Below, piece after piece: positions 34,932 through 51,501 of a DNA stretch of 64,000 bases. The notes beneath the pieces were generated by a model that worked only from the letters and a program-made list of their open reading frames with translations, did no database searches and was not told where the DNA came from. Position 1 is the stretch's first letter. Every line of letters begins with the position of its first letter. Both the position numbers and the translations under genes were made by a program. This DNA comes from Candidatus Kerfeldbacteria bacterium (GTDB taxonomy: Bacteria > Patescibacteriota > Patescibacteriia > SBBC01 > CAIJZX01): assembly GCA_016193315.1 (NCBI GenBank), contig JACPSJ010000001.1, positions 727,478 through 791,477 on the forward strand. Direction: 5' to 3'.

Positions 34932-36674
34932 CTACCACGACCCCCCACCACCCCCGCCAAAACCGCCGCCGGAGAATCCACCGCCACCGAACCCAGACGA
35001 ACCGCTGGCCGCCGGCGGGGCGAAGCTGCGGAGCGTGCGAGCGGAAAAACTGTTCATGGCCGACCACAACATCAGACTGTTGAAACTACCAGGGTATGAT
35101 CCGTGATACCACGATGGCGGCGGCTGGTTGAGGCCGGCGAAAGCCTGACTCCACTTCTCGGCCACGCCAAAGGCCATGGCGTACGGCAAGTACTGTTCAA
35201 AGATATTCTGGCGCTCCTGCCATTGTAAACGATACTTCTCGGCCTTTTCCAGAAACAGCTTGAACCCGCGGGCGTGCCAGAAGGCAGTCACGCCTTTTGA
35301 GGTGCGCTTCGGCATGACGCCGGCGAAAACGATGATCAGCAGCCCGATGATGGCCAGGCCGAGCTGCGGGAAAAGCGTAAACGCCACCACCAGCCCGAGT
35401 ACCAGCACGCCGCCGCCGACCAAGCCGGCTCGCACGCGCGCTTGTGACGGATCAGTCAGAAAGTACCCTTGTTCGGCTACCTGGCGGTAGAGATCCGATT
35501 GGATGGCCCGGACGTCGTCGGCGAAGGCGCCCTTTAGTTCAGACAGCCGGACGGAATCGCCGTCGGCAAACAGACCTGATAGCAGTTGGCGTTCATGTGC
35601 CCGGAGCGGTGGGTCGTCTTTTCGTTTACGCCGGCGAAGTTCGTAATCAGTTGACGCGGCCAAACCGAGCAGTTTCTTCTCTTTTGTTTCGGTAATGTCC
35701 ACGTAACCGCGAACGGCCAAGTCGATGATGGTGGCGACCACGTCGCGTTGATTGGCGCGTTCGTCAAAGAGGACGCCCATCTCACCCGGCGTCATCCCGG
35801 GCGGCGGGTCGTACTGGGCGATGACCGTGCCCGGCCCGGCCGGATCGCGACCCTGCCGCTTCCAATATCGCCACAGCCAGACCGCCAAGATCAGCGGCAA
35901 GGCAATATCGCCGATGATGACGGCCGGTCCTGACCGGAAAACAGCCCGCCATCCCGGCCCCAAACCGCCGCCCTGCCGAAGCTGGTCGTAGTTGCCTGGT
36001 TTCGTCACCACTCCGGTGGGCCAGCCGACGACCACGGTCAGGTAGTCGTTGCTAGCGAATGTGGCGCTCGAGATATCGGTGGTGAATCGGCACTCTTCAC
36101 TCTTCGACCCCACGGCGCCGGTGAAACAGCGAGACTGCAATTCATTGATGGGTACCTGTCCCGGCAACCTGACGGTGGCGTCGACTTGCCGAATCGGCAC
36201 TTCCCAGTCCGAACCGGTGACGTTCCAGTAGAGTTCGTCGTAGTCGTCAAAAAAGTTAACCGCCGCCAGCGCGCGGTAGCGAAGGGAATACGTGTGTTCG
36301 CCGCTGATCGTGCGATCAGGATCGCCTATTTTCCAGCGAACCGTGTCGGCGAATGACGATTGTTCGTACGGCACCGATCCCCCATCAAGAGTAATCTCAT
36401 CCAGTTCAATCGGCACGCTTATCCGATCAGCTCGATCTGTGGCGTAACGAAACGGTAGGTCACGGAAAATACCGTGCTTCGGCACAAAAAAATTGACCTC
36501 GATCGTTTCCGTGACATCAATCGAAGCGTCGGACTGAACGGTGACCGCTGAATGAAAGCGACTGATCGCCCAGTCGGCGGCCGTGGCCGGCCGAGCTATC
36601 AGGAATCCGACGACCGCGGTCAGAACAAAGTAACTACGCCAAGCGCTCACGGAGATAGTCGACCAGTTCTCCAA
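34932..36674 (-). CDS. DUF2207 domain-containing membrane protein with C-terminal Gly-rich tail
   Basis: N-terminal signal/TM, large extracytoplasmic domain, TM helices around LPLILAVWLW and VLVLGLVVAF, C-terminal GFGGGGFSGGGFGGGGGGSW. Confidence 0.65.
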   Translation of the reverse strand: MENWSTISVSAWRSYFVLTAVVGFLIARPATAADWAISRFHSAVTVQSDASIDVTETIEVNFFVPKHGIFRDLPFRYATDRADRISVPIELDEITLDGGSVPYEQSSFADTVRWKIGDPDRTISGEHTYSLRYRALAAVNFFDDYDELYWNVTGSDWEVPIRQVDATVRLPGQVPINELQSRCFTGAVGSKSEECRFTTDISSATFASNDYLTVVVGWPTGVVTKPGNYDQLRQGGGLGPGWRAVFRSGPAVIIGDIALPLILAVWLWRYWKRQGRDPAGPGTVIAQYDPPPGMTPGEMGVLFDERANQRDVVATIIDLAVRGYVDITETKEKKLLGLAASTDYELRRRKRKDDPPLRAHERQLLSGLFADGDSVRLSELKGAFADDVRAIQSDLYRQVAEQGYFLTDPSQARVRAGLVGGGVLVLGLVVAFTLFPQLGLAIIGLLIIVFAGVMPKRTSKGVTAFWHARGFKLFLEKAEKYRLQWQERQNIFEQYLPYAMAFGVAEKWSQAFAGLNQPPPSWYHGSYPGSFNSLMLWSAMNSFSARTLRSFAPPAASGSSGFGGGGFSGGGFGGGGGGSW

Positions 36675-37968
36675 TCGCCACGTCAGTTTGCTTCATCGAA
36701 TCGCGCTCGCGGACCGTGACCGTGCCCTTGGGGCGTTTGCCGCCTTCGAGGGTGTCGAAGTCGATGGTCACGCAGAACGGCGTGCCGATTTCGTCTTGGC
36801 TATAGTACCGCTTGCCGATGTTGCCGCGATCATCCCAAGCCACCATGAAGTGCGATTGGAGTTGGTGAAAAATATCCCGCGCTTGCTTGACCAGGGGCGG
36901 CTTGTTTGCCAAGAGCGGAAACACCGCGACTTTGTACGGTGCCAACCTCGGGTGCAGTTTTAGGACCAAGCGGTCATCCTCTTGGTGGTAGGCCTCGATC
37001 AGAAAGAACAGCAGCGAGCGATCGACGCCGGCCGAGGTTTCAATGTCCCACGGCAGAAACACGTCGCCGCTCTCAGGGTCTCGGTATCGAACGTCCTGCC
37101 CGGAAAATTCTTGGTGCCGCTTGAGATCCCAGTCCCCGCGATCATGGATGCCGATGAACTCCGCCCAGCCGAAGGGGCTGTGGTATTCGATATCGAACGC
37201 TTGCTGAGCATAGTGGGCTCGCTCTTGAGGCCGGTGCTCATGCCATCGCAAGTGCCGCGGGTTTAATCCGTACCTCACATACCAATCCCAACGATCCTGT
37301 TTCCAGTACGAAAACCATTTGTCAGCCTCTTTGTTATCCGGTCGAATGTAGAACTGCGTCTCCATCTGTTCAAACTCGCGGCTGCGGAAGGTAAAATTCC
37401 CAGGGGTTATTTCGTTGCGAAAGGCCTTGCCGATTTGGGCAATGCCGAATGGGATTTTGACCCGAGTGGTATCGAGAATATTCTTGAAATTCACCTGCGC
37501 TCCGTTGGTGATTTCGCCGCGCAGATAGATTTGCTGTTTTTCGCCCTCGATCACGCCGAGGAAGGCCGGTACCAGCAGATTGAACTTTTTTGGTTCGGTC
37601 CAGCTGGCTTTCTTGTTGGGGTGGGTGGTGGCGTGAGCTTTAATTTCACCTTCATGGTCAGCCCGAAAACGCTGATGACAAATTTTGCACTCGATCAATG
37701 GATCAGTGAAAGCTTCGACATGCCCAGAAGCCTCCCACGCCCGGGGGTTCATCATGATGGCCGCATCGATGCCAACCATGTCTTCGCGTCGCTCGACCAC
37801 ATCGGTCCACCAGGCGTCTTTGATACTCTTTTTAAAGAGTGCGCCGAGTGGACCATAATCCCAGGTACCAGCCAAGCCGCTGTAGATTTCTGAACCTGGA
37901 TAGATAAAGCCGCGCCGTTTGGCAAAACTGACAATCTCGCCCATCAAGTTCGGTTCCGGCGCCGCCAT
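36634..37968 (-). CDS. glyS: glycine--tRNA ligase (single-chain type)
   Basis: …EIVSFAKRRGFIYPGSEIYSGLAGTWDYGPLG… class II core and anticodon-binding domain. Start placed at the internal MAAPEPNLMGEIV of the 468-aa ORF. Confidence 0.85.
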   Translation of the reverse strand: MAAPEPNLMGEIVSFAKRRGFIYPGSEIYSGLAGTWDYGPLGALFKKSIKDAWWTDVVERREDMVGIDAAIMMNPRAWEASGHVEAFTDPLIECKICHQRFRADHEGEIKAHATTHPNKKASWTEPKKFNLLVPAFLGVIEGEKQQIYLRGEITNGAQVNFKNILDTTRVKIPFGIAQIGKAFRNEITPGNFTFRSREFEQMETQFYIRPDNKEADKWFSYWKQDRWDWYVRYGLNPRHLRWHEHRPQERAHYAQQAFDIEYHSPFGWAEFIGIHDRGDWDLKRHQEFSGQDVRYRDPESGDVFLPWDIETSAGVDRSLLFFLIEAYHQEDDRLVLKLHPRLAPYKVAVFPLLANKPPLVKQARDIFHQLQSHFMVAWDDRGNIGKRYYSQDEIGTPFCVTIDFDTLEGGKRPKGTVTVRERDSMKQTDVAIGELVDYLRERLA

Positions 37969-38036
37969 GATAACCTCAATGGTAGCAAGAATTGGACAAA
38001 ATTCAAGAGGGATTTCGAAATGAAAAACACCCGTCG

Positions 38037-38579
38037 TCATGCGGCGGGTGGTTCGCTCGGGCCTCCGGTCAATGTGCTCGGGCGGACCGCGCCGGTCGGC
38101 TCTGGACTTGGAGTTCCGAGAACGGTCTCAATCGAACCGCGCCATTCGAACCGCACGAACCAACTGCGATTCTTCGGTTGCCCTTCGACCGGCGGCGACT
38201 CCGTCGAACCGAGAGAAACGTTCGTATTCCGCTGGAAGTGCTCCTGGAGAGCCGGGTTAGCCCTGAAGAGGGCAGAAATCAACCAGGTGCACAGCCGACC
38301 AGGGGGAGTCAGCTTGCCTTCGGACAATTGACGATACTCGCTGAGCGACTCCATCACCGGTTGTGGAATCCAAGTCCCGACTGCTTGGCCCTCCGGAATC
38401 CGCCCGCCGAGTTTTTCCCCCACCTCCTGGCTGAAGGAAAACGTTAGATCCCCGCCAGCGGTCCGAAAGTACTGGATCCACTGGTGTCCGAGCCGCAACT
38501 GGTCTTCGTCCGTGAGCTCCAATTTGGAGCCCGGCCGCTCCGGTTCGATGTGGACTTCGGGTCTGGTTACCACCGGCAT
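38037..38579 (-). CDS. hypothetical protein
   Basis: 180-aa ORF downstream of clpC-like and upstream of glyS. No recognisable motif. Confidence 0.35.
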   Translation of the reverse strand: MPVVTRPEVHIEPERPGSKLELTDEDQLRLGHQWIQYFRTAGGDLTFSFSQEVGEKLGGRIPEGQAVGTWIPQPVMESLSEYRQLSEGKLTPPGRLCTWLISALFRANPALQEHFQRNTNVSLGSTESPPVEGQPKNRSWFVRFEWRGSIETVLGTPSPEPTGAVRPSTLTGGPSEPPAA

Positions 38580-38738: not shown

Positions 38739-41474
38739 TTATCCCACCGGCTTGGCTTTCTCCACCCGCAGCGTGCCGCCCGGCTCGAGCACGGCCACGT
38801 CGCGCCGGCCCAACTGTCCCTGGAGGAGAAATTTCGCAATCGCGTCATCAACCCGCTCTTGGACCAGCCGACGGAGCGGGCGGGCACCGAAGACTGGGTC
38901 GTATCCAGTTTGGGCCAGTTCGGCGATCGCTTCCGGCGAAGCTTTGAGGGTGATGCCCTTCGTCTGCAGATGTCGGGCGATCTCGTTGATCATCAGGCCG
39001 ACAATCTTGACAATCTGGATCGGGCTGAGTGGCTTAAAGACCACGACGGCATCAAAGCGGTTGAGGAATTCCGGTCGGAAGTACTGCTGGAGAATGTCAT
39101 TGATCAATTCTTGTTTGATCGTTTCCATCAACGCACCTTCGCGGAGTCGATTCTGAATATGCTGCGTGCCGGCGTTGGAGGTGGCAATGATGATGACATT
39201 GGTGAAATCAATGGTCCGTCCGGAAGCATCGGTCAACCGTCCGTCGTCCATCACCTGGAGAAAAAGATTGAGCACATCGGGATGGGCTTTTTCTAATTCA
39301 TCGAGCAGGACCAGTGAGAACGGTCGGTGCCGGACTGCCTCCGTTAGCAGGCCGCCGCTGGACCCGCCGTAGCCCGGCGGGGCGCCGAGTAGACGGTGGA
39401 TGCTGGCGATGTCTTGATACTCCGACATATCGAGCCGGACCATCGACGTGGCCGAGCCAAAGTAAACGGCCGCCACGGTTTTCGCCAGCTCCGTCTTGCC
39501 CACGCCGGTCGGCCCGAGAAAAAGGAAACTGGCGATCGGGCGTTTGGTGTCGCGGATTTCCGCCCGGGCGCGACGGAGGGCATTGGATACAGCCTTGACC
39601 GCTTCATCTTGGCCGACGATCCGACCATGGATCTCGTCTTCGAGGTGCAGCAGCTTCGACTGTTCGTCGGCGGTCACACTTCGGACGTTGATCTTCGATT
39701 GCTCGGAAATAATAGTCGCTACGTCGTCACCTAGGACGAGCGCCCGTGGGCCCCGGGCCCGGCGAGCTAGGGTAGCGGCTTCGGCCAGAATCTCTAGGGC
39801 TTTCCCCGGCTGCGTTTTTTCGTGGAGGTAGCGCTGCGACAATCGGACGGCTCGGTCAATGGCGTCATAGGTAAAATATACTTCGTGCTTCGCTTCCAGG
39901 GCGCCGATTCGCGACTCAACCGCGACGATCGATTGTTCTTCATCCATTTCCGGGACTTCCACCAGTTCGAACGCGCCGCTCACGCCGCTGGGCTCGATCA
40001 GCCGCCGATAGGCGCTGACCTGGGCAGTGGCCGCGGACAAAAAGGTTCCACGTTGCAGTTCTTCAGCAATCATATGGGCTGCATCCAGCCCGCCGCCGCT
40101 CGACGACACACCGACCAGTTGGTCGAAGTCTTCAATCGCCAACACGATATTCCCCGCCCGAACTAATTCCTGGATGATGAGGGCCACCCGTTCTTCCAGC
40201 TCGCCCATCCCACCAGCCCCGGCCACGAGCGCCGCCGAGGATAAGCTGACCAGCCGCTTGTCTTGGAGGATCGTCGGCACATCCTCGGCCACCATTCGCT
40301 CGGCCAGTGCGTTGAGGACGGTCGTTTTGCCGACGCCGACATCGCCCACCAGCATCACGCTCCGCCGGCCGCTGGCCATGATCCGGAATATTTTTTTCAG
40401 CTCCTCGTCACGGCCGATGACGTAGGGCAGTACCCCTTCGCGAGCACGGCGAGTCAAATCAAGGCTGAAACGATCGAGGACCGGCGTGGCCGAAGCGGTG
40501 TAACCACGATCAATGACGCCGCGCGGCTTCATGGCTGCCCGCTGCCGGTACCGTCGCAGCCTCGTCCGCAAGTCTTCCTGAATCAACAGCCAGGCGATGA
40601 CGTGTTCGAGCCGCTGTTCATCAACTCCCAATTCGTACAATAGTTCCCGGGCCGGATCTTCCAGTTCGCTGATGGCCGCCATCAAATACGGCGGTGTGAC
40701 CCGATCTAAGCGGTCGCCGGCGGCCCGTCGAAAAGCGTGGATGAGCAAAGTTCGCGTGGCCAGACTCGGCACCGGGTCAATCGAGCCAGACGGCTGGTGG
40801 CTATCGAATGTGGCTAGGCGCTCGCGCATCGTGTCCGGCCTGAGCCCCATGCGCACAATCATGCTGGCCACCTGTGGTGTGGTGGTCAACACGTGGAGGA
40901 CGTGGGCGGGGGTCATTTCCGACCGCCGGCGTTGCTGTGCCAAGAACCAGGCCTGATCCATAATCCGGAGCGCTGCTTCAGAGAAGCGACTGCCCACATC
41001 GAGGTGTCTTGTGCCCGCTGTCCAAGCCTGATCGACCGGAAGTTGATCGGTCCCGGGCGGAATGCGCGGATAGAACATGGTTTCCCGCTCCAGGCGGTAG
41101 TAAAGGTAGAGCGCGGCCACGATCCCGAGCCACCAAGCAGCCAAACTGACGTCGCGGGCGAGCCAGGTGAGCAGCAACTGCCCATCGAGCAAAGCGCGGT
41201 AGAGAACGGGTCCGCCCAAAACCGCGCCGCCGATAACAAGCAGCATTAACAGCCCGGTGATGAGTAGTTTGATGACATGCTCCTGGCGTCGCTCGGCGAT
41301 GGTCAGAGCGTTGATCGGATGAGACCATGACCACCAGCGCCCGGCCCACCAGGTGGCCAGGCCCGCCCCCTGACAGGTAGGGCAGGTTCGGGTTTGCCGA
41401 CGCTGGTCGACCAGCATCCCGTGTCCGCCACAAGTTAGGCAGCGGGCCAGTTCGGCGGATGGCGAACCAGCCAT
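38739..41474 (-). CDS. ClpC-type double AAA+ Clp ATPase with N-terminal zinc ribbon and two transmembrane helices
   Basis: N-terminus CLTCGGHG…CPTCQG, then two hydrophobic helices (IKLLITGLLMLLVIGGAVLGG; LAAWWLGIVAALYLYY), then a Clp_N repeat pair. D1 Walker A GDVGVGKTT. Short middle region. D2 Walker A GPTGVGKTE, sensor and C-terminal domain. Confidence 0.85.
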   Translation of the reverse strand: MAGSPSAELARCLTCGGHGMLVDQRRQTRTCPTCQGAGLATWWAGRWWSWSHPINALTIAERRQEHVIKLLITGLLMLLVIGGAVLGGPVLYRALLDGQLLLTWLARDVSLAAWWLGIVAALYLYYRLERETMFYPRIPPGTDQLPVDQAWTAGTRHLDVGSRFSEAALRIMDQAWFLAQQRRRSEMTPAHVLHVLTTTPQVASMIVRMGLRPDTMRERLATFDSHQPSGSIDPVPSLATRTLLIHAFRRAAGDRLDRVTPPYLMAAISELEDPARELLYELGVDEQRLEHVIAWLLIQEDLRTRLRRYRQRAAMKPRGVIDRGYTASATPVLDRFSLDLTRRAREGVLPYVIGRDEELKKIFRIMASGRRSVMLVGDVGVGKTTVLNALAERMVAEDVPTILQDKRLVSLSSAALVAGAGGMGELEERVALIIQELVRAGNIVLAIEDFDQLVGVSSSGGGLDAAHMIAEELQRGTFLSAATAQVSAYRRLIEPSGVSGAFELVEVPEMDEEQSIVAVESRIGALEAKHEVYFTYDAIDRAVRLSQRYLHEKTQPGKALEILAEAATLARRARGPRALVLGDDVATIISEQSKINVRSVTADEQSKLLHLEDEIHGRIVGQDEAVKAVSNALRRARAEIRDTKRPIASFLFLGPTGVGKTELAKTVAAVYFGSATSMVRLDMSEYQDIASIHRLLGAPPGYGGSSGGLLTEAVRHRPFSLVLLDELEKAHPDVLNLFLQVMDDGRLTDASGRTIDFTNVIIIATSNAGTQHIQNRLREGALMETIKQELINDILQQYFRPEFLNRFDAVVVFKPLSPIQIVKIVGLMINEIARHLQTKGITLKASPEAIAELAQTGYDPVFGARPLRRLVQERVDDAIAKFLLQGQLGRRDVAVLEPGGTLRVEKAKPVG

Positions 41475-41477
41475 GGT

Positions 41478-41849
41478 CTAGGCCGGAATGAGTTGACGGA
41501 TGAGCATCCCCACGGCCACGACTGGCACCAAGAGCCACAGCAGGAAGAGGAACACGATCACACCTGACCAGACAGTCAGCACGGCCAGCGACCAACCGAT
41601 CAGGAGGAGACGGAAGAAAAAACTGATGATCCGCCCGCTCCGCGAATAATCGGCGTACATCGGTTTGCCGATGTTGATGATCAGAAACCGCAGCCCAAGA
41701 CGATCGACCATACCCCACCACTGTCGCACGGTCCGGCGCCAGGTCAGACGCAGGCCATCGCTATACCACCAGACGGGAAAATACAAGATTTCTCCGATCA
41801 CCTCGCGAAGAACAAACGATAGGGTTCGACCAGTCAGCGACTTAGTCAT
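41478..41849 (-). CDS. small Trp-rich membrane protein
   Basis: 123 aa with 2-3 TM helices, directly upstream of the clpC-like gene (4-nt spacer). Confidence 0.45.
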   Translation of the reverse strand: MTKSLTGRTLSFVLREVIGEILYFPVWWYSDGLRLTWRRTVRQWWGMVDRLGLRFLIINIGKPMYADYSRSGRIISFFFRLLLIGWSLAVLTVWSGVIVFLFLLWLLVPVVAVGMLIRQLIPA

Positions 41850-42014: not shown

Positions 42015-42419
42015 CTAGTGGTCTTTCTTGGTATCGACTGTCCGTAGCCGATCCCACTGAACCCGTTTGTGACTGTCATTCTTCATCAGGACCACCCCCC
42101 ACTCCGGCTCGAAGCGACAGCCATTCTCCTCCATCTTCCAAGGCTCGGGTGGTAGGCTGCGGCCGATAACCGCGAGCAGCATCCCGCTTTCAAGGTTGCC
42201 ATCGGCACCAGGAAACATTACGGTGTCGCCTGGTTTGAAGCCGCCTCCGACGTCGCCCTTGAGCGTGAAGCTGAGGTCATCTCGTCCGTAGCTGAACAGG
42301 GCCCGATTGTATCCGTCGAGGGTACTCCAGACCCGATCCCGAGGCCAGCGCTGACCGATTCCAGTTGTGACTTCGTCGGTCAAAACTTCTAGTTCTGTAG
42401 CAGCAAGCAATGCAATCAC
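42015..42419 (-). CDS. hypothetical protein
   Basis: 134-aa ORF, no motif recognised. Confidence 0.35.
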   Translation of the reverse strand: MIALLAATELEVLTDEVTTGIGQRWPRDRVWSTLDGYNRALFSYGRDDLSFTLKGDVGGGFKPGDTVMFPGADGNLESGMLLAVIGRSLPPEPWKMEENGCRFEPEWGVVLMKNDSHKRVQWDRLRTVDTKKDH

Positions 42420-43421: not shown

Positions 43422-45539
43422 TTATTCTTCGGCCGCCGCCACTGTCCCCTCTCCCGCGGCCTGTGGATCATTAGGGACATCGGTCGTCAGCGACGGTTGG
43501 CTGACCTCCAGCGTGCGGCCAGAGAAGCTGTCCGTCGCTTTGGCCGCGGCCGTATTCGTCAGCACCACGGAATTTCCCACCTGAGTATCGTTGGGGGTGA
43601 TGGAAACTTCAAAGTAAGCAACCAACGTTGGCAAGCGCGACCCAGTCCCGGGCGGCACCTTGTTGAGCGTCCAGCTGACCGTCCGCTCGTCGGGGTCGAT
43701 GCGAATATCGCCGGCATCGCGACCGATATTCTTCCCGGTCCAGAAAACGTGGGTTGGGAGGGCGGCCGTGACTACCATGTTCGCCGCCTCACTGGTCGTG
43801 TTGGTCACCCGCCAGAAAATCCGGTAACTCGTGGTTTGGCCGACCACCGGCGGGACGGGGCCCTGTCCGTAGGCCGAGCCCTCATCACTATAGTACCGAG
43901 CTTCGGCTTGGAAACCGAAGGTGGTTACGATCTTGGTCGTAAATTCAATCGGGGGCGTTCCCTCAGCCGGAGTCGGCAGTGTCGGCGAAGAGACTGCCAC
44001 CCGGGCCACCACCCGCTGGTTCACATCATCGTCGCTGTCAACAGTTAGGCTAGCCACGGTCCCGACCGCCAACCGAATAGTCACATCCTGCCCGGGCTTG
44101 AGCAGCTCCAGACCGAGAACCTGATCCTTGGTCCAGGTCAAACTGCGATTGTCAACCTTGGCCTTGGCTGGGTTTTCTAGCTCAGTCAGGTCGAGGGCCG
44201 CACCATCAAGGGTCACGGTCGCAGCGATGTCGCTGATTTCCACGTCGCTCTCGTTGGCAATACGAATCGTGTAATTAAGGGAAGTTCCGAGTTCCGCCAC
44301 GCTTAACTCTGTTTGACCGTTGACTGCGACCGAGGTGGTCAGACCGGTATTCACCAAGATGACTAAGATAGCTTGCTCCGCCTGGAGATCAATTGTATTG
44401 GTGGCTGTCACCAGGCCAGCTCTGGCCGTCAATTCAAAGGTGTCACCCACATCACCGACCATCGATCCGGTGACGGTAATCGTGCCTTTGGTGTCCTGGG
44501 CGATCGAGTCCAGCCGCCAGACACCGGTGCCAGTTCGCGATTCCGGGCCGGTGGCTGGGTTCGTCCCCGTCACCTCCAAGCCATCAGGGTAGACCGCTTC
44601 GATTTGCACGTTGGCCAAATCACGGTTAGCCGTGTTGGCGTAGCCGATGGTCCACGCGCCGCTGGCGCCGGGGGCCAATTTCTTCGGTCCGTCGAGCGTC
44701 AGAGTGAGGATCGAAGAAGTAATTTTGGTCTTGGCCTCGGCCGTCGTCTGGAATTCGGAGTTGAAATTGGCTGGTCGGTAGGCCAAGGTGGCGCTAAACG
44801 CCCGCGCGGTGTTGACCGAGCCAAAAATAGTGCCTTTGATCGTCATCGTCGCCACCCGGCCACTGGCAATCGTCCCGAGATCGAAGGCGTTCTGGAAATC
44901 ATTCGTGCTGGCACGGCTCGTTTCTTGCACCGTAAAACCTTCCGGATACTCGATGGTTAGTTCCGCCCGCACGAGGTTGACTGGTTCGAGGTTCTGGTAC
45001 TTCGCGGTCAGCACAATATCGTCCCCCGAGGCCACCTCGGCCGGCGCTTCAAGTTCGAGTTGGACGCTGGCGCCGCTGAATTGGTTGGTCCGGTTAAAAA
45101 CGAAAAAACCGCCGACCGCTGCCAGGGACAAAACCGTCAGCGAGCCGATTACCCAGCCCCACGGGAATGGCCGTCCGCGGCTGCGTTCGAGCCGGCCCAT
45201 GCCCACTGGGGGGGAAGGTGGGGGGGCGCCATGTAGGACCGGCTCCAGTCCGCCGGAATCTAGTTTCTCGTCAGCTCGAGGCTGAGGCTCAGCCGCCGCA
45301 TCGCCGACGGCGACCGGCACTTTCCGACCTGATCCCATACGCTTTGTTGTCCGGCCTCGACCTTCGGGCGGCGAGCCTTCGGCTGGCTCAACTTCGGGGT
45401 GGTCGAGATCAGCCAAGAACGCCGAGACGTCGGCGTTTGAGTATTTTGCTGATGCCGGTCGACGAGCGCTCACGGTGCTTTTTGGTTTCGCCATGACCAC
45501 TAGTCTAACCCGAAACGGCGGCCCCTGACAACCGCTCAA
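43422..45539 (-). CDS. large membrane-anchored surface protein with DUF11/CARDB-like beta-sandwich repeats
   Basis: 705 aa. N-terminal low-complexity cytoplasmic tail, single TM (WGWVIGSLTVLSLAAVGGFFVF), then repeated T/V/S-rich Ig-like segments. Confidence 0.5.
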   Translation of the reverse strand: MSGCQGPPFRVRLVVMAKPKSTVSARRPASAKYSNADVSAFLADLDHPEVEPAEGSPPEGRGRTTKRMGSGRKVPVAVGDAAAEPQPRADEKLDSGGLEPVLHGAPPPSPPVGMGRLERSRGRPFPWGWVIGSLTVLSLAAVGGFFVFNRTNQFSGASVQLELEAPAEVASGDDIVLTAKYQNLEPVNLVRAELTIEYPEGFTVQETSRASTNDFQNAFDLGTIASGRVATMTIKGTIFGSVNTARAFSATLAYRPANFNSEFQTTAEAKTKITSSILTLTLDGPKKLAPGASGAWTIGYANTANRDLANVQIEAVYPDGLEVTGTNPATGPESRTGTGVWRLDSIAQDTKGTITVTGSMVGDVGDTFELTARAGLVTATNTIDLQAEQAILVILVNTGLTTSVAVNGQTELSVAELGTSLNYTIRIANESDVEISDIAATVTLDGAALDLTELENPAKAKVDNRSLTWTKDQVLGLELLKPGQDVTIRLAVGTVASLTVDSDDDVNQRVVARVAVSSPTLPTPAEGTPPIEFTTKIVTTFGFQAEARYYSDEGSAYGQGPVPPVVGQTTSYRIFWRVTNTTSEAANMVVTAALPTHVFWTGKNIGRDAGDIRIDPDERTVSWTLNKVPPGTGSRLPTLVAYFEVSITPNDTQVGNSVVLTNTAAAKATDSFSGRTLEVSQPSLTTDVPNDPQAAGEGTVAAAEE

Positions 45540-46302
45540 AACGCATCACTGACTGGAGAACCTGGTCGCTCTGCAATGGTCGATCAAGCGTTTGTTCTAT
45601 CACCAGCCGCAGCAGCTGACGGACCTGACGAAAAATCTGTCGCTGATCATTCGGCTGACCTTCGTTCCGGAGGTAGTCGACGGTGTCCGTCGAAAGAGCC
45701 ATGTATCCAGCCTGGGCCTCAGCCCGATGGACGAATCCATGGAGCGGCTGGAAGACCAGGTCATCAGCCGACAACGGACGATGGCAAAAACCACATCGCT
45801 CAAGTGATGGCGCAAACCCTTCGTGCTGTAGAATCTGCCAGGCCCGGCGAAGAAGAAGCAGCCATCGACGTCCGCTTGACCATACAATCTCGCCGGTCAT
45901 TGCTTCGAGCATCTGCACGACCAGCGGGTACAGGCCGGGTTCCGGCTGGTTCGGTTTCGTCACGCGCTCGACGAGTTCAAACAGCCACTGCGCACTGACC
46001 AAGGCGATGAGGTCTGATCGCAGCCTTGGCCATCGTCGCCGGATGATGCTGCCGGTGACCACGTCGACCACCCGACCATTGGCCACCATCATGTCGACTT
46101 CCATCAGCGGCTCAAGTGACCCGCCGAGTTTGGAAATGCTCTTCTTCGTGCCGCGGGCGCGAATCTGCTGCTGGCCGAGATTCGGTGTCAAAACCACCAA
46201 TTGCCGGTCGTGTTCGCGATCGTCCGTGTGCCGGAGAATGAGCGCTTTGGTGCGGATGACAGTGGACACGATGTCCAGTATACCACGGGTTCTTGACACC
46301 AA
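45505..46302 (-). CDS. recO: DNA repair protein RecO
   Basis: OB-fold N-terminus, CGFCHRP zinc motif, 265 aa. Confidence 0.7.
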   Translation of the reverse strand: MVSRTRGILDIVSTVIRTKALILRHTDDREHDRQLVVLTPNLGQQQIRARGTKKSISKLGGSLEPLMEVDMMVANGRVVDVVTGSIIRRRWPRLRSDLIALVSAQWLFELVERVTKPNQPEPGLYPLVVQMLEAMTGEIVWSSGRRWLLLLRRAWQILQHEGFAPSLERCGFCHRPLSADDLVFQPLHGFVHRAEAQAGYMALSTDTVDYLRNEGQPNDQRQIFRQVRQLLRLVIEQTLDRPLQSDQVLQSVMRFERLSGAAVSG

Positions 46303-47913: not shown

Positions 47914-50900
47914 TTAGGCCCGCGCTAAACCAATATCGGCTTTTTTACCGTCCAGCTCGATGGTGGTTTTGTGGCTGACTCCGTCGAGACTCGGCGACGC
48001 GGTTTTCGCCCGAACCTCTGGCAAAATTCGCTGGGCGTACCGCTCCACCACCTGACCGGCCAACGTTTTAGGCTGCACATACAGGACGATTTGATCGGCC
48101 GGCTTCAGGCCGGCAGTTTTTCGCAAGGCGTTGATCTCACGCACCAGATCACGAACCATCCCCTCTTCTTTTAGTTCATCGCTGACCGTCGTGTCGAGCG
48201 CCACTCGATCAGACGACATCCATTCCTTGCCGGACGGCAGCGACTCGGCCACGTGAATCTCTTTGACGTTCAGTTCTTCACGCACGATCGAATCAAGGTC
48301 AGGCCGGAGCGCGGCCGTCATCACCAATTGCGCCAGCGGTTGTCGTACTTTCAAGCCGGCTTTGGCCCGCAGCGCATGGCCTTGCTCAACGATCTGCTTG
48401 GCCAGCGCCATGTCGCTCAGCAGCCGCGCGTCAATTTCGCCGACCGATGGCCAGTCTTCGAGGTGGACAGATTCTTTGTCACCGCCAACAACGTGGTACA
48501 CATGCTCCGCCAAAAATGGGATGAACGGAGCCATCAGTTTCGACAACTTCCGGAGCACGTGCTGCAGTACGACGCTGGCCACTTGCATTTCATCCGACTT
48601 GAATCGATCCCGGCTCCGCCGGACATACCAGGTTGAAAGATCGGTCACGAACGCGCCAATGGCTCGCGCCGCGCCGGTAATGTCATAGTGCTCTAGACGC
48701 TTGGTCACGTCTTTCGTCAGGACATTGACCATCGAATGAACCCAGCGGTCGAGCGGGTGGTTCGCCCGACCAACATTCGTAGATTCGTAGCTCCTATTCG
48801 TAGGTTCGTAGTTTTTATTTGTAGATTCGTAGAGTTGCCAAAAACTGACTACGTTCATCAAAATCAAGAATGTTTTCTTCACCCCTTCGCCAACAATCTT
48901 CGGGTCAAAGTTTTTCGTGTCCCACGGCTGGTTGGCCGTGTACATGAACCAGCGCAGAGCATCAGCGCCGTGCTTGGCAAACAGCTCGTCCAGATCACCG
49001 TAGTTCTTTAGCGATTTTGACAACTTTCGACCTTGGGTGTCGTTCAGGTGGCCGAGCACCAGGACGTGCCGGTACGATGATTCCTTCACCGCGCCGGCGC
49101 GCTGGAGCAAGGTGCTGATCGCCAACAAGGTATAGAACCAGCCACGCGTTTGATCGATCGCTTCGGAAATGTAGTGGGCTGGATAGCTTCCGGCACCGTC
49201 GATCTGGTTCTTGTGCTCGAACGGGTAGTGCCACTGGGCAAACGGCATGGCGCCGGAGTCGAACCAGGCGTCGGCCACCTCCGGAACACGTTTCATGGTG
49301 CCGTGGTGACATTGCGGGCATGACCATGCCAGACCATCAATAAAGGGCCGGTGGGGATCGAAACTGCCATCCGACTGGAATACCGTGGCCGGAAATTTCA
49401 ATTCGATCGGCCGGCCGTTTGGCACGTCCTCCAGTCGGGTTATGGTCGGCGCCGGCTGCAGGGATAAAGCCCACTCCGTCACCAGAATCGGGTCGGCGTG
49501 GGTGACGATGACAAAGGTTTTTCCTTCGTGCTTGGCATCGAGTTCGCGCAGAAAACTGAGCATCCGCTGACGAATGTCGGTCCACGTTTCTCCCCCGGGT
49601 GGTGCGTCGTGCACCCGTTTCGAACGATCACCGAACGTGGCGTGGAATTCGGCAATCGTTTTTCCTTCAAAAACTGGTCCGATGTGGTACTCGTTGATCC
49701 GTTTGTCCTCGGTCACGGCGATGCCCAGCTCTTGACCAATAATTTCAGCCGTTTGCCTGGCCCGGAGAAACTGTGAGGAGTAGATGGCGTCAATCTTTTC
49801 CGGCTCCAATTTCTGCGCTCCGCGTTGGGCTTGTTTTCTCCCCGACTCAGTCAGGGGACACAAATTTTTGTTGGCTGGTTCGGTGTTGAGCGTATTGTTC
49901 TCGTTGTTCGTGGATCCGCCGTGTCTGACGAAGAAATAGCGATTCCTGGTCGGTAGCCGATCGAGTAAGTCTTGGTAACTGCCGAGGCACTCCTGGTGCC
50001 CACACTGATCACATCGCCAGATCGGCAGCGGCGTCCCCCAGAAGCGCTCGCGCGAAACAGCCCAATCCTTCACCTCTCGCAACCACTCCCCAAAGCGTCC
50101 GGCTTTAATGTGCGCCGGGTGCCAATTGATTTTATTATTGTTCGCGATCAGTTGATCGCGTAGCTTCGACATCTGAATGAACCACGACGTTTTGGCGTAG
50201 TACAGGAGCGGATGTTTGCAGCGCCAGCAGAATGGATAATCGTGGGTGTAGTTCTCAATCTTGTACAACTTGTGATGCTTCTCCAGCCAGTCAACAATCT
50301 TCTTTTGCGTCTGACCTTTGGCATCGCGAACCTCCAAACCAGCCCACGGCTTTACCAACTCGTCGAACTTTCCTTGCAAATCGACGGTGTGGATCGTGGG
50401 CAAGTCAAGTTTCTTCCCCAATTGAAAATCATCTTCGCCGTACATGACTGCGGTGTGGACGACGCCGGTGCCTTCGTCGGTGGTGACGAAGTCGGCGGGC
50501 ACAATAGAATAGGCGTGTTCGTATTCCTGAGCCCACCGGCGAAGAATCTCTGGTGCCGTAAGGCCGGTCGGTTCCAGAGACCCTTCGCTTCGCCGCGGGC
50601 TTCGCTCAGGGATACGGCTCTTCCCTACTTCACGCAAATCCAGAAAATCAAACAGCGGCTTGTATTTCTTCCCGACCAGTGCGGCACCGGAAACGGTTTT
50701 TGCCACCTGCTCCTTCCTGAATCCTAAATCCGGCATTCGGTTCTCGGCCAAAATGTAGTACTCGTCGCCGCGCCGAACCCGGGCATACCGAATCTTTGGA
50801 TCCACAGCTAGCGCCACGTTCCCCGGCAGCGTCCACGGCGTCGTCGTCCAGGCCAGCACAAACGTTCTCGGTTCATCAACTAGTTCGAATTTCACATACG

Positions 50901-51501
50901 CTGCTGGCTCGGTTATCCGTTCGTACCCTTGGGCGACTTCATGACTCGACAGGGCCGTACCGCACCGCGGGCAATACGGCACGACTTTGTAATCCTGAAC
51001 CAACAGTTTCTGATCCCAAATCTGCCTGAAAATCCACCATAGTGTTTCAATGTATTCCGGCTGATAGGTGATGTACGGGTGCTCGAGATCGAGCCAGAAC
51101 CCCACGCGCCTGGTCATCTTCTCCCACAAGTCTTTGTACTTCCACACCGATGCCTTGGCCTGGGCATTGAACCTCTCGATGCCGTACTTCTCGATATCTT
51201 TCTTGCCGGAGATGCCGAGTTCTTTTTCGACTTCTATTTCAACCGGCAGCCCGTGCGTGTCCCAGCCGGCTTTGCGCTCGACACGATAGCCCTGCATCGT
51301 TTTGAATCGCGGAATGATGTCCTTGAACGCCCGGGTTTCAACGTGCCCGATGTGCGGGATGCCGTTGGCCGTTGGTGGTCCGTCGTAGAATACAAAGTCT
51401 CCTTTCGGTGAGGGTTTCGCTAGCGTTTTCTTGAAGATGTCTTGGGCTTCCCAATCCTTGAGAATCTGTTCCTCGAGTTCGGGAAATTTGGGGATGGGCA
51501 T
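47914..51501 (-). CDS. ileS: isoleucine--tRNA ligase with inserted histidine-phosphatase (phosphoglycerate-mutase-family) domain
   Basis: HIGH (PHIGH), KMSKS (KLSKS), CP1 editing domain and C-terminal anticodon-binding region. 1195 aa, versus ~940 aa typical. In-frame insertion at aa ~497-731 carrying RHG and downstream catalytic His of the PGAM/histidine-phosphatase fold (motifs in findings), bracketed by two CxxC pairs. Confidence 0.9.
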   Translation of the reverse strand: MPIPKFPELEEQILKDWEAQDIFKKTLAKPSPKGDFVFYDGPPTANGIPHIGHVETRAFKDIIPRFKTMQGYRVERKAGWDTHGLPVEIEVEKELGISGKKDIEKYGIERFNAQAKASVWKYKDLWEKMTRRVGFWLDLEHPYITYQPEYIETLWWIFRQIWDQKLLVQDYKVVPYCPRCGTALSSHEVAQGYERITEPAAYVKFELVDEPRTFVLAWTTTPWTLPGNVALAVDPKIRYARVRRGDEYYILAENRMPDLGFRKEQVAKTVSGAALVGKKYKPLFDFLDLREVGKSRIPERSPRRSEGSLEPTGLTAPEILRRWAQEYEHAYSIVPADFVTTDEGTGVVHTAVMYGEDDFQLGKKLDLPTIHTVDLQGKFDELVKPWAGLEVRDAKGQTQKKIVDWLEKHHKLYKIENYTHDYPFCWRCKHPLLYYAKTSWFIQMSKLRDQLIANNNKINWHPAHIKAGRFGEWLREVKDWAVSRERFWGTPLPIWRCDQCGHQECLGSYQDLLDRLPTRNRYFFVRHGGSTNNENNTLNTEPANKNLCPLTESGRKQAQRGAQKLEPEKIDAIYSSQFLRARQTAEIIGQELGIAVTEDKRINEYHIGPVFEGKTIAEFHATFGDRSKRVHDAPPGGETWTDIRQRMLSFLRELDAKHEGKTFVIVTHADPILVTEWALSLQPAPTITRLEDVPNGRPIELKFPATVFQSDGSFDPHRPFIDGLAWSCPQCHHGTMKRVPEVADAWFDSGAMPFAQWHYPFEHKNQIDGAGSYPAHYISEAIDQTRGWFYTLLAISTLLQRAGAVKESSYRHVLVLGHLNDTQGRKLSKSLKNYGDLDELFAKHGADALRWFMYTANQPWDTKNFDPKIVGEGVKKTFLILMNVVSFWQLYESTNKNYEPTNRSYESTNVGRANHPLDRWVHSMVNVLTKDVTKRLEHYDITGAARAIGAFVTDLSTWYVRRSRDRFKSDEMQVASVVLQHVLRKLSKLMAPFIPFLAEHVYHVVGGDKESVHLEDWPSVGEIDARLLSDMALAKQIVEQGHALRAKAGLKVRQPLAQLVMTAALRPDLDSIVREELNVKEIHVAESLPSGKEWMSSDRVALDTTVSDELKEEGMVRDLVREINALRKTAGLKPADQIVLYVQPKTLAGQVVERYAQRILPEVRAKTASPSLDGVSHKTTIELDGKKADIGLARA

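Follow-up and report, generated by a model that had tools for sequence, protein, structure and literature searches.

A predicted membrane-anchored Hsp100/Clp-type ATPase and its linked small membrane protein in Candidatus Kerfeldbacteria and other Patescibacteria

Hsp100/Clp ATPases receive their substrates at the face formed by the N domain and the first AAA+ ring (D1), and translocation runs from this face through D1 to the second ring (D2). ClpB carries a coiled-coil M domain, which is its DnaK-coupling element. ClpA, ClpC, and ClpX carry a ClpP-docking tripeptide, which lies between the TSN motif and the RPEF segment, and ClpE has an N-terminal zinc-binding element of four cysteines. To our knowledge, all the characterised members (ClpA, B, C, E, L, G, V, and X) are soluble, and AAA+ quality control at the bacterial membrane is attributed to FtsH. 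The subject of this analysis is a gene pair in a 64-kb stretch of DNA from Candidatus Kerfeldbacteria (64,000 nucleotides, hereafter the window). One gene encodes a 911-residue ATPase of the Hsp100/Clp superfamily that is predicted to be anchored in the membrane, and the other, directly upstream, encodes a small membrane protein of 123 residues.

The pair is best explained, with a probability of roughly 0.55 for the whole package, as a ClpP- and DnaK-independent, D2-driven membrane AAA+ dislocase or remodeller with an obligate small membrane subunit. The architecture alone is well supported and far more secure than the function.

Architecture of the 911-residue ATPase

Sequence and structure prediction give good support for the ATPase as an integral membrane protein, which is held by an N-in/C-in hairpin of two transmembrane (TM) helices ahead of the Clp domains. 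The first helix (TM1) is strongly hydrophobic, with a maximal Kyte-Doolittle value over 19 residues (KD19) of 2.46 and a summed Hessa free energy (dG) of -1.44 at residues 70-88. The second helix (TM2) is moderately to marginally hydrophobic in the Kerfeldbacteria protein (KD19 1.3). The original prediction of a membrane-anchored Clp protein is supported, and of its two strongly hydrophobic helices only TM1 fits that description. Across 71 homologs, TM1 is 82% apolar and 7% charged and TM2 is 86% apolar and 3% charged, compared with about 52% and about 24% in the soluble domains of the family. No comparable hydrophobic segment is present in three true ClpBs. On average, Lys plus Arg number 3.1 ahead of TM1, 1.1 within the loop, and 4.0 behind TM2, which is a positive-inside pattern, and the loop length of about 18 residues is kept across the family. 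The N-in/C-in orientation follows from this pattern and from the fact that the AAA+ part must be cytoplasmic; TM2 is taken as membrane-spanning because the topology requires it. In the AlphaFold2 (AF2) model, which had been proposed as a check on this N-terminal region and bears it out, helices occupy residues 56-97, 100-105 (a short one), and 109-133 and are followed by a linker. The hairpin is modelled with a predicted local distance difference test score (pLDDT) above 90. Position 121 in TM2 is Asp in 54 of 77 homologs and Ala in the Kerfeldbacteria protein (about 41110-41112 of the window).

The segment preceding the anchor contains four cysteines in the spacing CxxC-x15-CxxC (C12/C15 and C31/C34), both pairs being of the CxxCxGxG type. 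They can be read directly from the sequence, as the original prediction had done, and each is conserved in at least 90% of the family. All four are present in 64 of 77 species pairs and all are absent in 9, which include metagenome-assembled genomes (MAGs) labelled Saccharibacteria and Uhrbacteria. The best Pfam match of residues 1-66 is DnaJ_CXXCXGXG (E 3.4e-4), with 21.2 bits against a gathering score of 32.7, which it does not reach; the match covers model positions 14-51, equivalent to one zinc centre. The AF2 model places strands at residues 9-11, 20-22, and 28-30. The module is therefore best described as a single DnaJ-type CxxCxGxG pair, for which zinc binding is predicted from the conservation of the cysteines and from the beta-hairpins. 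It is followed by a Trp-rich hairpin with strands at 39-43 and 46-49, modelled at pLDDT above 90, whose consensus WxxGxWWxW is conserved; in all, five short strands precede the anchor.

This N-terminus is shared by about 70 full-length homologs of about 900 residues from Patescibacteria-type MAGs (39-67% identity), and for this reason the annotated start is considered correct. The possibility that translation begins downstream of the hydrophobic segments, which would have removed them from the protein, is contradicted by the same homologs. With a profile of residues 1-136, 1091 cluster representatives out of 1.84 billion were retrieved at E<=1e-3, of which 201 reached E<=1e-10, always at the N-terminal end of the target protein; this profile also recovers proteins in which the CxxCxGxG motif is repeated several times. 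The pLDDT exceeds 90 across residues 10-130.

Behind the anchor, the AF2 model (pLDDT 88.4 and predicted template modelling score 0.75 for the ATPase) shows the Clp_N domain at residues 157-281, a long helix at 286-315, and then D1 and D2. The Clp_N repeats expected from the original prediction are present: a scan of the domain alone gave 27.2 bits, above the cut-off of 20.7, in two stretches, and eight helices were modelled. Pfam matches on the whole protein comprise AAA_2 (3.5e-57), ClpB_D2-small (4.1e-22), AAA_lid_9, AAA in two stretches, and Clp_N. The D1-D2 core superposes on subunits of ClpC and ClpB hexamers with Foldseek E values of 1e-59 to 1e-45 and a target-normalised TM-score of about 0.85. 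By fold and domain order, the protein is a member of the Hsp100/Clp superfamily.

The two rings differ in the state of their motifs, which were surveyed in 72 family members and, for comparison, in three true ClpBs; the latter are canonical (Table 1). D1 had been described as normal; instead, the DE of Walker B, both Arg fingers, and the pore-loop Tyr have been lost, and this degeneration is family-wide. Judging from the retained Walker A motif, nucleotide is probably still bound by D1. D2 agrees with the earlier description, since all its canonical motifs are present in the Kerfeldbacteria protein. It is also the most conserved region of the family, with a mean top-residue frequency of 0.77 as compared to 0.62 in D1 and 0.45 in the N domain.

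The assignment to the ClpC type could not be upheld. The PxKA motif and the Walker A of D2 lie 98 residues apart, compared with 218-221 in the three true ClpBs, which leaves no M domain. Indeed, the ClpB models and structures align in two pieces with the M domain left out between them, and ClpA matches in one. The search for a ClpP-docking loop, suggested together with the original prediction, was also negative: the segment from the sensor-1 TSN to RPEF measures 30 residues in 69 of 69 members and aligns with ClpB without gaps, and no [ILVM]G[FLIM] docking tripeptide is found within it in 67 of the 69. The loop positions in ClpA and ClpC were taken here from established knowledge and not from an alignment. 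The 911-residue protein lies below every NCBIfam equivalog cut-off, including those of TIGR03346 for ClpB (588.3 bits against 1232.1) and TIGR02639 for ClpA (508.4 against 993.15); ClpK and ClpG gave 488 and 468 against 1900, and ClpV1 gave 457 against 885. Among the 39 Pfam families for the ATPase (25 of them listed) there was no Peptidase_M41, and the C-terminus is ClpB_D2-small. Public annotations of the homologs are generic and read 'AAA family ATPase' or 'ATP-dependent Clp protease ATP-binding subunit ClpC/ClpA'.

The small membrane protein and its linkage to the ATPase gene

Both open reading frames (ORFs) are on the same strand, with the small gene 5' of the ATPase gene, as originally predicted. 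The spacer between them measures 3 nt and not the 4 nt first given, and this short distance suggests co-translation of both genes. Positions 41069-41849 of the window correspond to ATPase residues 1-135 plus the small gene. The same two gene calls are present on independent assemblies. A full-length search showed the 911-residue product to be identical to the Candidatus Kerfeldbacteria database protein P0065 ('AAA family ATPase'), and the 123-residue product is 100% identical to P0001, the NCBI entry 'hypothetical protein HYY50_04130'. Promoter and terminator scans of the locus gave signals at or below the shuffle expectation and were uninformative.

The small protein is Trp-rich, as had been noticed earlier, with 8 Trp in 123 residues. 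It contains the motifs Y23FPVWWY29 and G61KPMY..SGRIISFFFR80, which correspond in the family to YFPVWWYSxGL and GKPMYGDYTRSGRIISFFFR. Positions W27, W28, Y29, G32, P63, S76, R80, and W105 are invariant; Arg80, which stands at the start of the hydrophobic helix, is conserved in 77 of 77 sequences (about 41610-41612 of the window). Residues 1-80 are basic and amphipathic and include 13 Lys or Arg, as read from the sequence. The only strongly hydrophobic stretch covers the 38 residues 81-118 (dG -3.39), which could form one long or two short TM helices, so the description of the protein as polytopic is not established. The AF2 model (pLDDT 93.1) consists of helices at 5-28, 31-51, and 53-58 and of a single 51-residue helix at 70-120. 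No match to the small protein was obtained in Pfam, NCBIfam, or PADLOC, and a Foldseek comparison with the folds in the PDB returned only noise (best E 1.1).

On the evidence of conserved gene order, the small gene is an obligately linked partner of the ATPase gene. The protein collection contains 64 homologs of the small protein, and a genome scan with the small-protein alignment detected relatives in 282 species-representative genomes. A Clp-like gene lies immediately 3' of the small gene and on the same strand in 76 of the 76 testable loci; in the other 4 of the 80 loci less than 300 nt of contig remained, which made them untestable. For the reverse look-up, the starting points were a member that lacks the zinc module, an ordinary member, and a TM-only member of a sister group of about 840 residues, all three being divergent ATPases. 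A gene of 113-126 residues was found directly upstream in 3 of 3 cases, matching the small-protein profile with E values of 3e-28, 3e-24, and 3e-14. This co-occurrence bears out the suggestion that the upstream gene is a genuine partner. The TM hairpin and the partner are kept in all 77 species pairs, even where the zinc module has been lost. The anchor and the partner are therefore regarded as the conserved core and the zinc module, whose cysteines are absent in 9 of the 77, as optional.

Several relatives and records deserve separate mention. Members of the sister group of about 840 residues (L086 2571-5532; P0141-P0144) have only the N-terminal TM helices, without the zinc module, and are preceded by the homolog of the small partner that gave the E value of 3e-14. 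A paralogous family of about 600 residues shares the zinc module, the TM hairpin, and the Clp_N domain with the ATPase, but these are followed by a remnant D1, with no D2 (L088 4001-5812; L092-L101; P0209, P0220, P0223, P0228, P0235, P0246, P0251, P0255, and P0293). These are complete genes with a conserved C-terminus (...VPYTKILK). No small partner was found near them in the loci examined, where a Glycos_transf_4 gene and then L21 follow downstream, and an S26 signal peptidase gene lies directly upstream in four loci. The cassette is also carried by MAGs titled 'uncultured Gammaproteobacteria', 'Acutalibacteraceae', and 'Lysobacteraceae' (L008, L013-L015, L045, L063, and others), some of which, such as L008, also show synteny with RecO, DUF11, and GlyRS. 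These off-lineage titles probably belong to mislabelled or mis-binned records.

Table 1. Features of the ATPase-partner locus, with window coordinates and motif states
Feature	Window position	Strand	Description	Basis
ATPase gene	38739..41474	(-)	911-aa membrane-anchored (predicted) Hsp100/Clp-type ATPase	ORF list; independent gene callers
Small partner gene	41478..41849	(-)	123-aa small membrane protein	ORF list; independent gene callers
Intergenic spacer	41475..41477	(-)	3 nt, TAG acc ATG	read from sequence
Predicted cytoplasmic zinc module	41361..41450	(-)	residues 9-38, C12-x2-C15-GGHG...C31-x2-C34-QGAG	sequence, conservation, AF2
Trp-rich beta-hairpin	41310..41360	(-)	residues 39-55, LATWWAGRWWSWSHPIN	AF2, family consensus
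TM helix 1 (predicted)	41202..41276	(-)	~residues 67-91	hydropathy, conservation, AF2
Short extracytoplasmic loop (predicted)	41148..41201	(-)	residues 92-109	K+R count, conserved length
TM helix 2 (predicted)	41097..41147	(-)	~residues 110-126, LAAWWLGIVAALYLYY, aromatic-rich	AF2, family composition
Clp_N-type N domain	40632..41006	(-)	residues 157-281	Pfam, AF2
D1 AAA+ module	39750..40487	(-)	~residues 330-575, catalytically degenerate	motif census, alignment to ClpB structures
D2 AAA+ and D2-small	38760..39677	(-)	~residues 600-905, canonical	motif census, invariant columns
D1 Walker A			GxxGVGKT kept family-wide; G377DVGVGKT in Kerfeldbacteria protein
D1 Walker B			DE replaced by E[DN] or KD in family; E448-D449 in Kerfeldbacteria protein
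D1 pore loop			K[YF]RGEFEER replaced by GG[MVI]GQLEER in family, without aromatic; GGMGELEER in Kerfeldbacteria protein
D1 Arg fingers			ERRF replaced by residues without Arg in family; SGAF in Kerfeldbacteria protein
D2 Walker A			residues 654-661, canonical, largely invariant
D2 Walker B			D725-E726, canonical, largely invariant
D2 pore loop			G701-Y702, GAPPGY in Kerfeldbacteria protein
D2 sensor 1			N767, canonical, largely invariant
D2 Arg finger			R806, canonical, largely invariant
D2 sensor 2			G863ARPLRR, canonical, largely invariant
Conserved-synteny regions	43422..46302 and 36634..38040	(-)		loci L005-L084

Proposed mechanism and competing explanations

From the domain order, the motif states, the family conservation, and the gene linkage described above, we infer a hexamer, a physical complex with the partner, a direction of pulling, and the substrates. 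The ATPase, being derived from class-I Hsp100/Clp proteins, would form a hexamer as Hsp100s do. Because the anchor is N-terminal to the N domain and is joined to it by a linker of about 30 residues, the entry face would rest against the membrane on its cytoplasmic side, in the manner of FtsH and Msp1; 12 TM helices, together with the partner, would keep the N-domain/D1 face at the inner face of the membrane. D1 would act as a nucleotide-binding structural or assembly ring and D2 as the only motor. The lack of an M domain removes the known DnaK-coupling route, and the lack of a ClpP-docking loop means that ClpP would not be fed. The partner, with its basic, Trp-rich amphipathic cytoplasmic part and its long anchor, probably assembles with the TM hairpin and the Trp hairpin at the membrane interface. 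The machine would thus grip membrane-embedded or membrane-proximal proteins, pull them towards the cytoplasm, and release rather than degrade them.

Several points weigh against this proposal. The Tyr of the D2 pore loop is removed by a deletion of 4-6 residues (query residues 697-708) in about 30 of 71 members, and these include P0066-P0069 and P0071, which are 64-67% identical to the Kerfeldbacteria protein; about 40 other members, and the Kerfeldbacteria protein itself (Y702), keep the canonical GAPPGY. The Tyr was apparently lost more than once. Since the members with this deletion lack an aromatic pore loop in D1 and D2 alike, classical threading is not a mechanism conserved throughout the family. 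In addition, TM2 is of marginal hydrophobicity in the Kerfeldbacteria protein, physical contact between the ATPase and the partner is deduced from gene linkage, and a housekeeping neighbourhood (RecO and GlyRS) gives no clue to the substrate.

A broader form of the proposal regards the pair as a membrane proteostasis machine common to the Candidate Phyla Radiation (CPR), with a pseudo-ATPase D1, a single D2 motor, and a small subunit. It would be a bacterial counterpart of Msp1 or of Cdc48 in endoplasmic reticulum-associated degradation, with a non-threading mode in about half of the family. This generalisation is tentative, and the odds are somewhat against it.

The deletions in the D2 pore loop are also the starting point of a different, rather unlikely explanation, in which nothing is threaded and conformational changes driven by D2 hydrolysis reach the partner by way of D1, the N domain, and the TM hairpin and could gate, assemble, or remodel a partner oligomer, in a manner similar to Torsin with LAP1 or LULL1. 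It is favoured by the absence of an aromatic residue from the D1 pore loop of any member, by the catalytic residues of D2, all of which are invariant nonetheless, and by a linkage to the partner that is stricter than any other feature and persists where the zinc module is lost. A mid-membrane Asp121 in TM2 and the invariant Arg80 of the partner could be in intramembrane contact, which would point in the same direction. However, the association between Asp121 and Lys or Arg at position 87 of the partner (41/13 against 14/9) is too weak a covariation to be used, GAPPGY is retained in the Kerfeldbacteria protein and the members that resemble it in this loop, and so is Clp_N, which in known Hsp100s is a module for binding substrates or adaptors.

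A stand-alone disaggregase similar to ClpG or ClpL, working without DnaK and merely concentrated at the membrane by its anchor, is improbable. Autonomous disaggregases are known to need no Hsp70 (for ClpL, see PMC11006417). The lack of both the M domain and the ClpP loop fits such Hsp70-independent enzymes, and D2 is nearest to ClpB (1qvr, E 2.8e-143). Known autonomous disaggregases, on the other hand, have two active rings and aromatic pore loops, whereas D1 is dead in the CPR family, and the ClpG and ClpK scores given above remain far below 1900. An entry face pressed to the membrane through a linker of about 30 residues would hinder the handling of bulky aggregates, and the obligate membrane partner would be left unexplained.

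A further explanation, which is highly improbable, reverses the direction of movement and makes the pair an export or assembly motor, which would push or pass its substrates, by way of a channel built of the 12 TM helices and the partner, into the membrane or to its other side. The candidate substrate is a TM surface protein of the DUF11/CLIPPER type (640-705 residues). Across divergent Patescibacteria, a recurrent gene order is observed, namely RecO, the surface protein, the small gene, the Clp gene, and GlyRS. Of 67 testable loci, 41 have a DUF11 homolog on the same strand upstream of the pair, in 7 cases as the direct neighbour, but RecO and GlyRS are likewise conserved in the neighbourhood (29 and 30 loci, respectively). 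The synteny may thus be non-functional, and the DUF11 synteny is not taken as functional evidence because unrelated housekeeping genes are conserved alongside. Moreover, the polarity of Hsp100s, from the N face and D1 to D2, runs away from the membrane, and the extracytoplasmic loop has only about 18 residues.

Even less credible is a ClpP-coupled membrane protease, which is what the 'ClpC-type' and 'FtsH-like' wording of the original prediction implied. Homologs are indeed annotated as ClpC or ClpA, and some Patescibacteria have clpP (TM7x). The docking segment described above, gapless to ClpB and lacking the tripeptide in nearly all members, argues against this coupling, and the 64-kb window encodes no ClpP, nor FtsH or Lon. 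Finally, an annotation artefact, namely an ordinary soluble ClpB or ClpC with a downstream start, has a negligible probability, given that residues 1-136 are conserved in about 70 homologs and in the 201 stronger profile matches, that they are modelled with high confidence, and that an identical 911-residue protein was recovered; nothing was found in its favour, the one oddity being a word-index search of residues 1-227 that came back empty even for the protein itself, which was treated as a technical miss.

An integral-membrane Hsp100 with a dead D1, no coupling to ClpP or DnaK, and an obligate small subunit would represent a new architecture in a heavily studied family, and the half of the family without aromatic pore loops would point to non-threading AAA+ action. 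As the D2 pore-loop Tyr is present in some close relatives and absent from others, the family constitutes a natural experiment on the need for pore-loop threading. The presence of the pair in hundreds of species of Patescibacteria, whose genomes are very small, suggests a core function in these episymbionts. Some homologs come from MAGs that bear the label Saccharibacteria, and because members of this group can be cultivated and are genetically tractable, the question is testable.

Neighbouring genes and comparison with known systems

The window also encodes GyrB, PheRS, an AddA-like helicase-nuclease, the F-type ATP synthase, MetRS, GlyRS, RecO, IleRS, MurJ, and ArgRS. Two ORFs flank the cassette, one of 134 residues (42015..42419(-)) and one of 180 residues (38037..38579(-)). 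Pfam and PADLOC gave no match to either, and tblastn found no homolog of them among 80 related loci, which places them outside the cassette, either as lineage-specific genes or as non-genes. The IleRS-like ORF (47914..51501(-), 1195 residues) carries a His_Phos_1 domain at residues 523-678 (E 1.1e-34), which is inserted between two tRNA-synt_1 stretches and is unusual for an aminoacyl-tRNA synthetase. An anti-phage defence system was considered and rejected: PADLOC returned only generic matches to the D2 domain (PDC-M37B and DolB) and none to the small protein, and the neighbourhood is a housekeeping one.

Full-text literature searches turned up no account of this CPR family or of any Hsp100/ClpB anchored in the membrane; the lipocone work and the CPR protein-family work that were considered proved unrelated to the ATPase-partner pair.

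The N-terminal module shares with the Cys-rich domain of DnaJ (PF00684) two CxxCxGxG motifs about 15 residues apart. DnaJ has four such repeats instead of two, and there is no J domain in the Kerfeldbacteria protein.

ClpB and Hsp104 have the same order of Clp_N, D1, D2, and D2-small and likewise do not dock ClpP, the region of the ClpP loop being gapless between them and the present family. The D2 of T. thermophilus ClpB (1qvr) is, as noted, the closest of all. The Kerfeldbacteria protein differs from both in its lack of an M domain, its degenerate D1, its membrane anchor, and its N-terminal zinc module. ClpA also lacks an M domain and aligns in one continuous match (residues 166-889 on a ClpA model and 172-888 on PDB 1ksf), but it is soluble, has an IGL ClpP-docking loop, and has two active rings, none of which applies to the Kerfeldbacteria protein. 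ClpC and ClpE share the overall fold; ClpC subunits are the top Foldseek matches (E 1e-59), and a ClpE chain from the PDB is among the sequence matches of the ATPase. They are soluble, with a short M domain as well as a ClpP loop, whereas the zinc module of the Kerfeldbacteria protein is of the DnaJ type and is followed by a TM hairpin.

With FtsH the likeness is one of geometry and not of homology: in both, an N-terminal TM pair would hold a hexameric AAA+ ring with its entry face towards the bilayer. FtsH differs from the present protein in its single AAA module of the classic clade, its M41 metalloprotease at the C-terminus, and its periplasmic domain of considerable size. Msp1/ATAD1 serves as a working analogy, as an N-terminally anchored AAA+ protein without an attached protease; Msp1 is described as a membrane-protein dislocase (PMC12793716). 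It is eukaryotic, with a single AAA module, a single TM segment, and no obligate small partner, so that only the AAA+ fold is in common.

Torsin (reviewed in PMC5425593) is a Clp-D2-like, membrane-associated AAA+ protein without aromatic pore loops that needs the transmembrane cofactors LAP1 or LULL1. It resembles the CPR family in that about half of the latter lacks the pore-loop aromatic and all its members have a membrane partner. Torsin, however, is a single, luminal ring that has no Arg finger of its own and receives it from the cofactor, whereas in the CPR family R806 is invariant.

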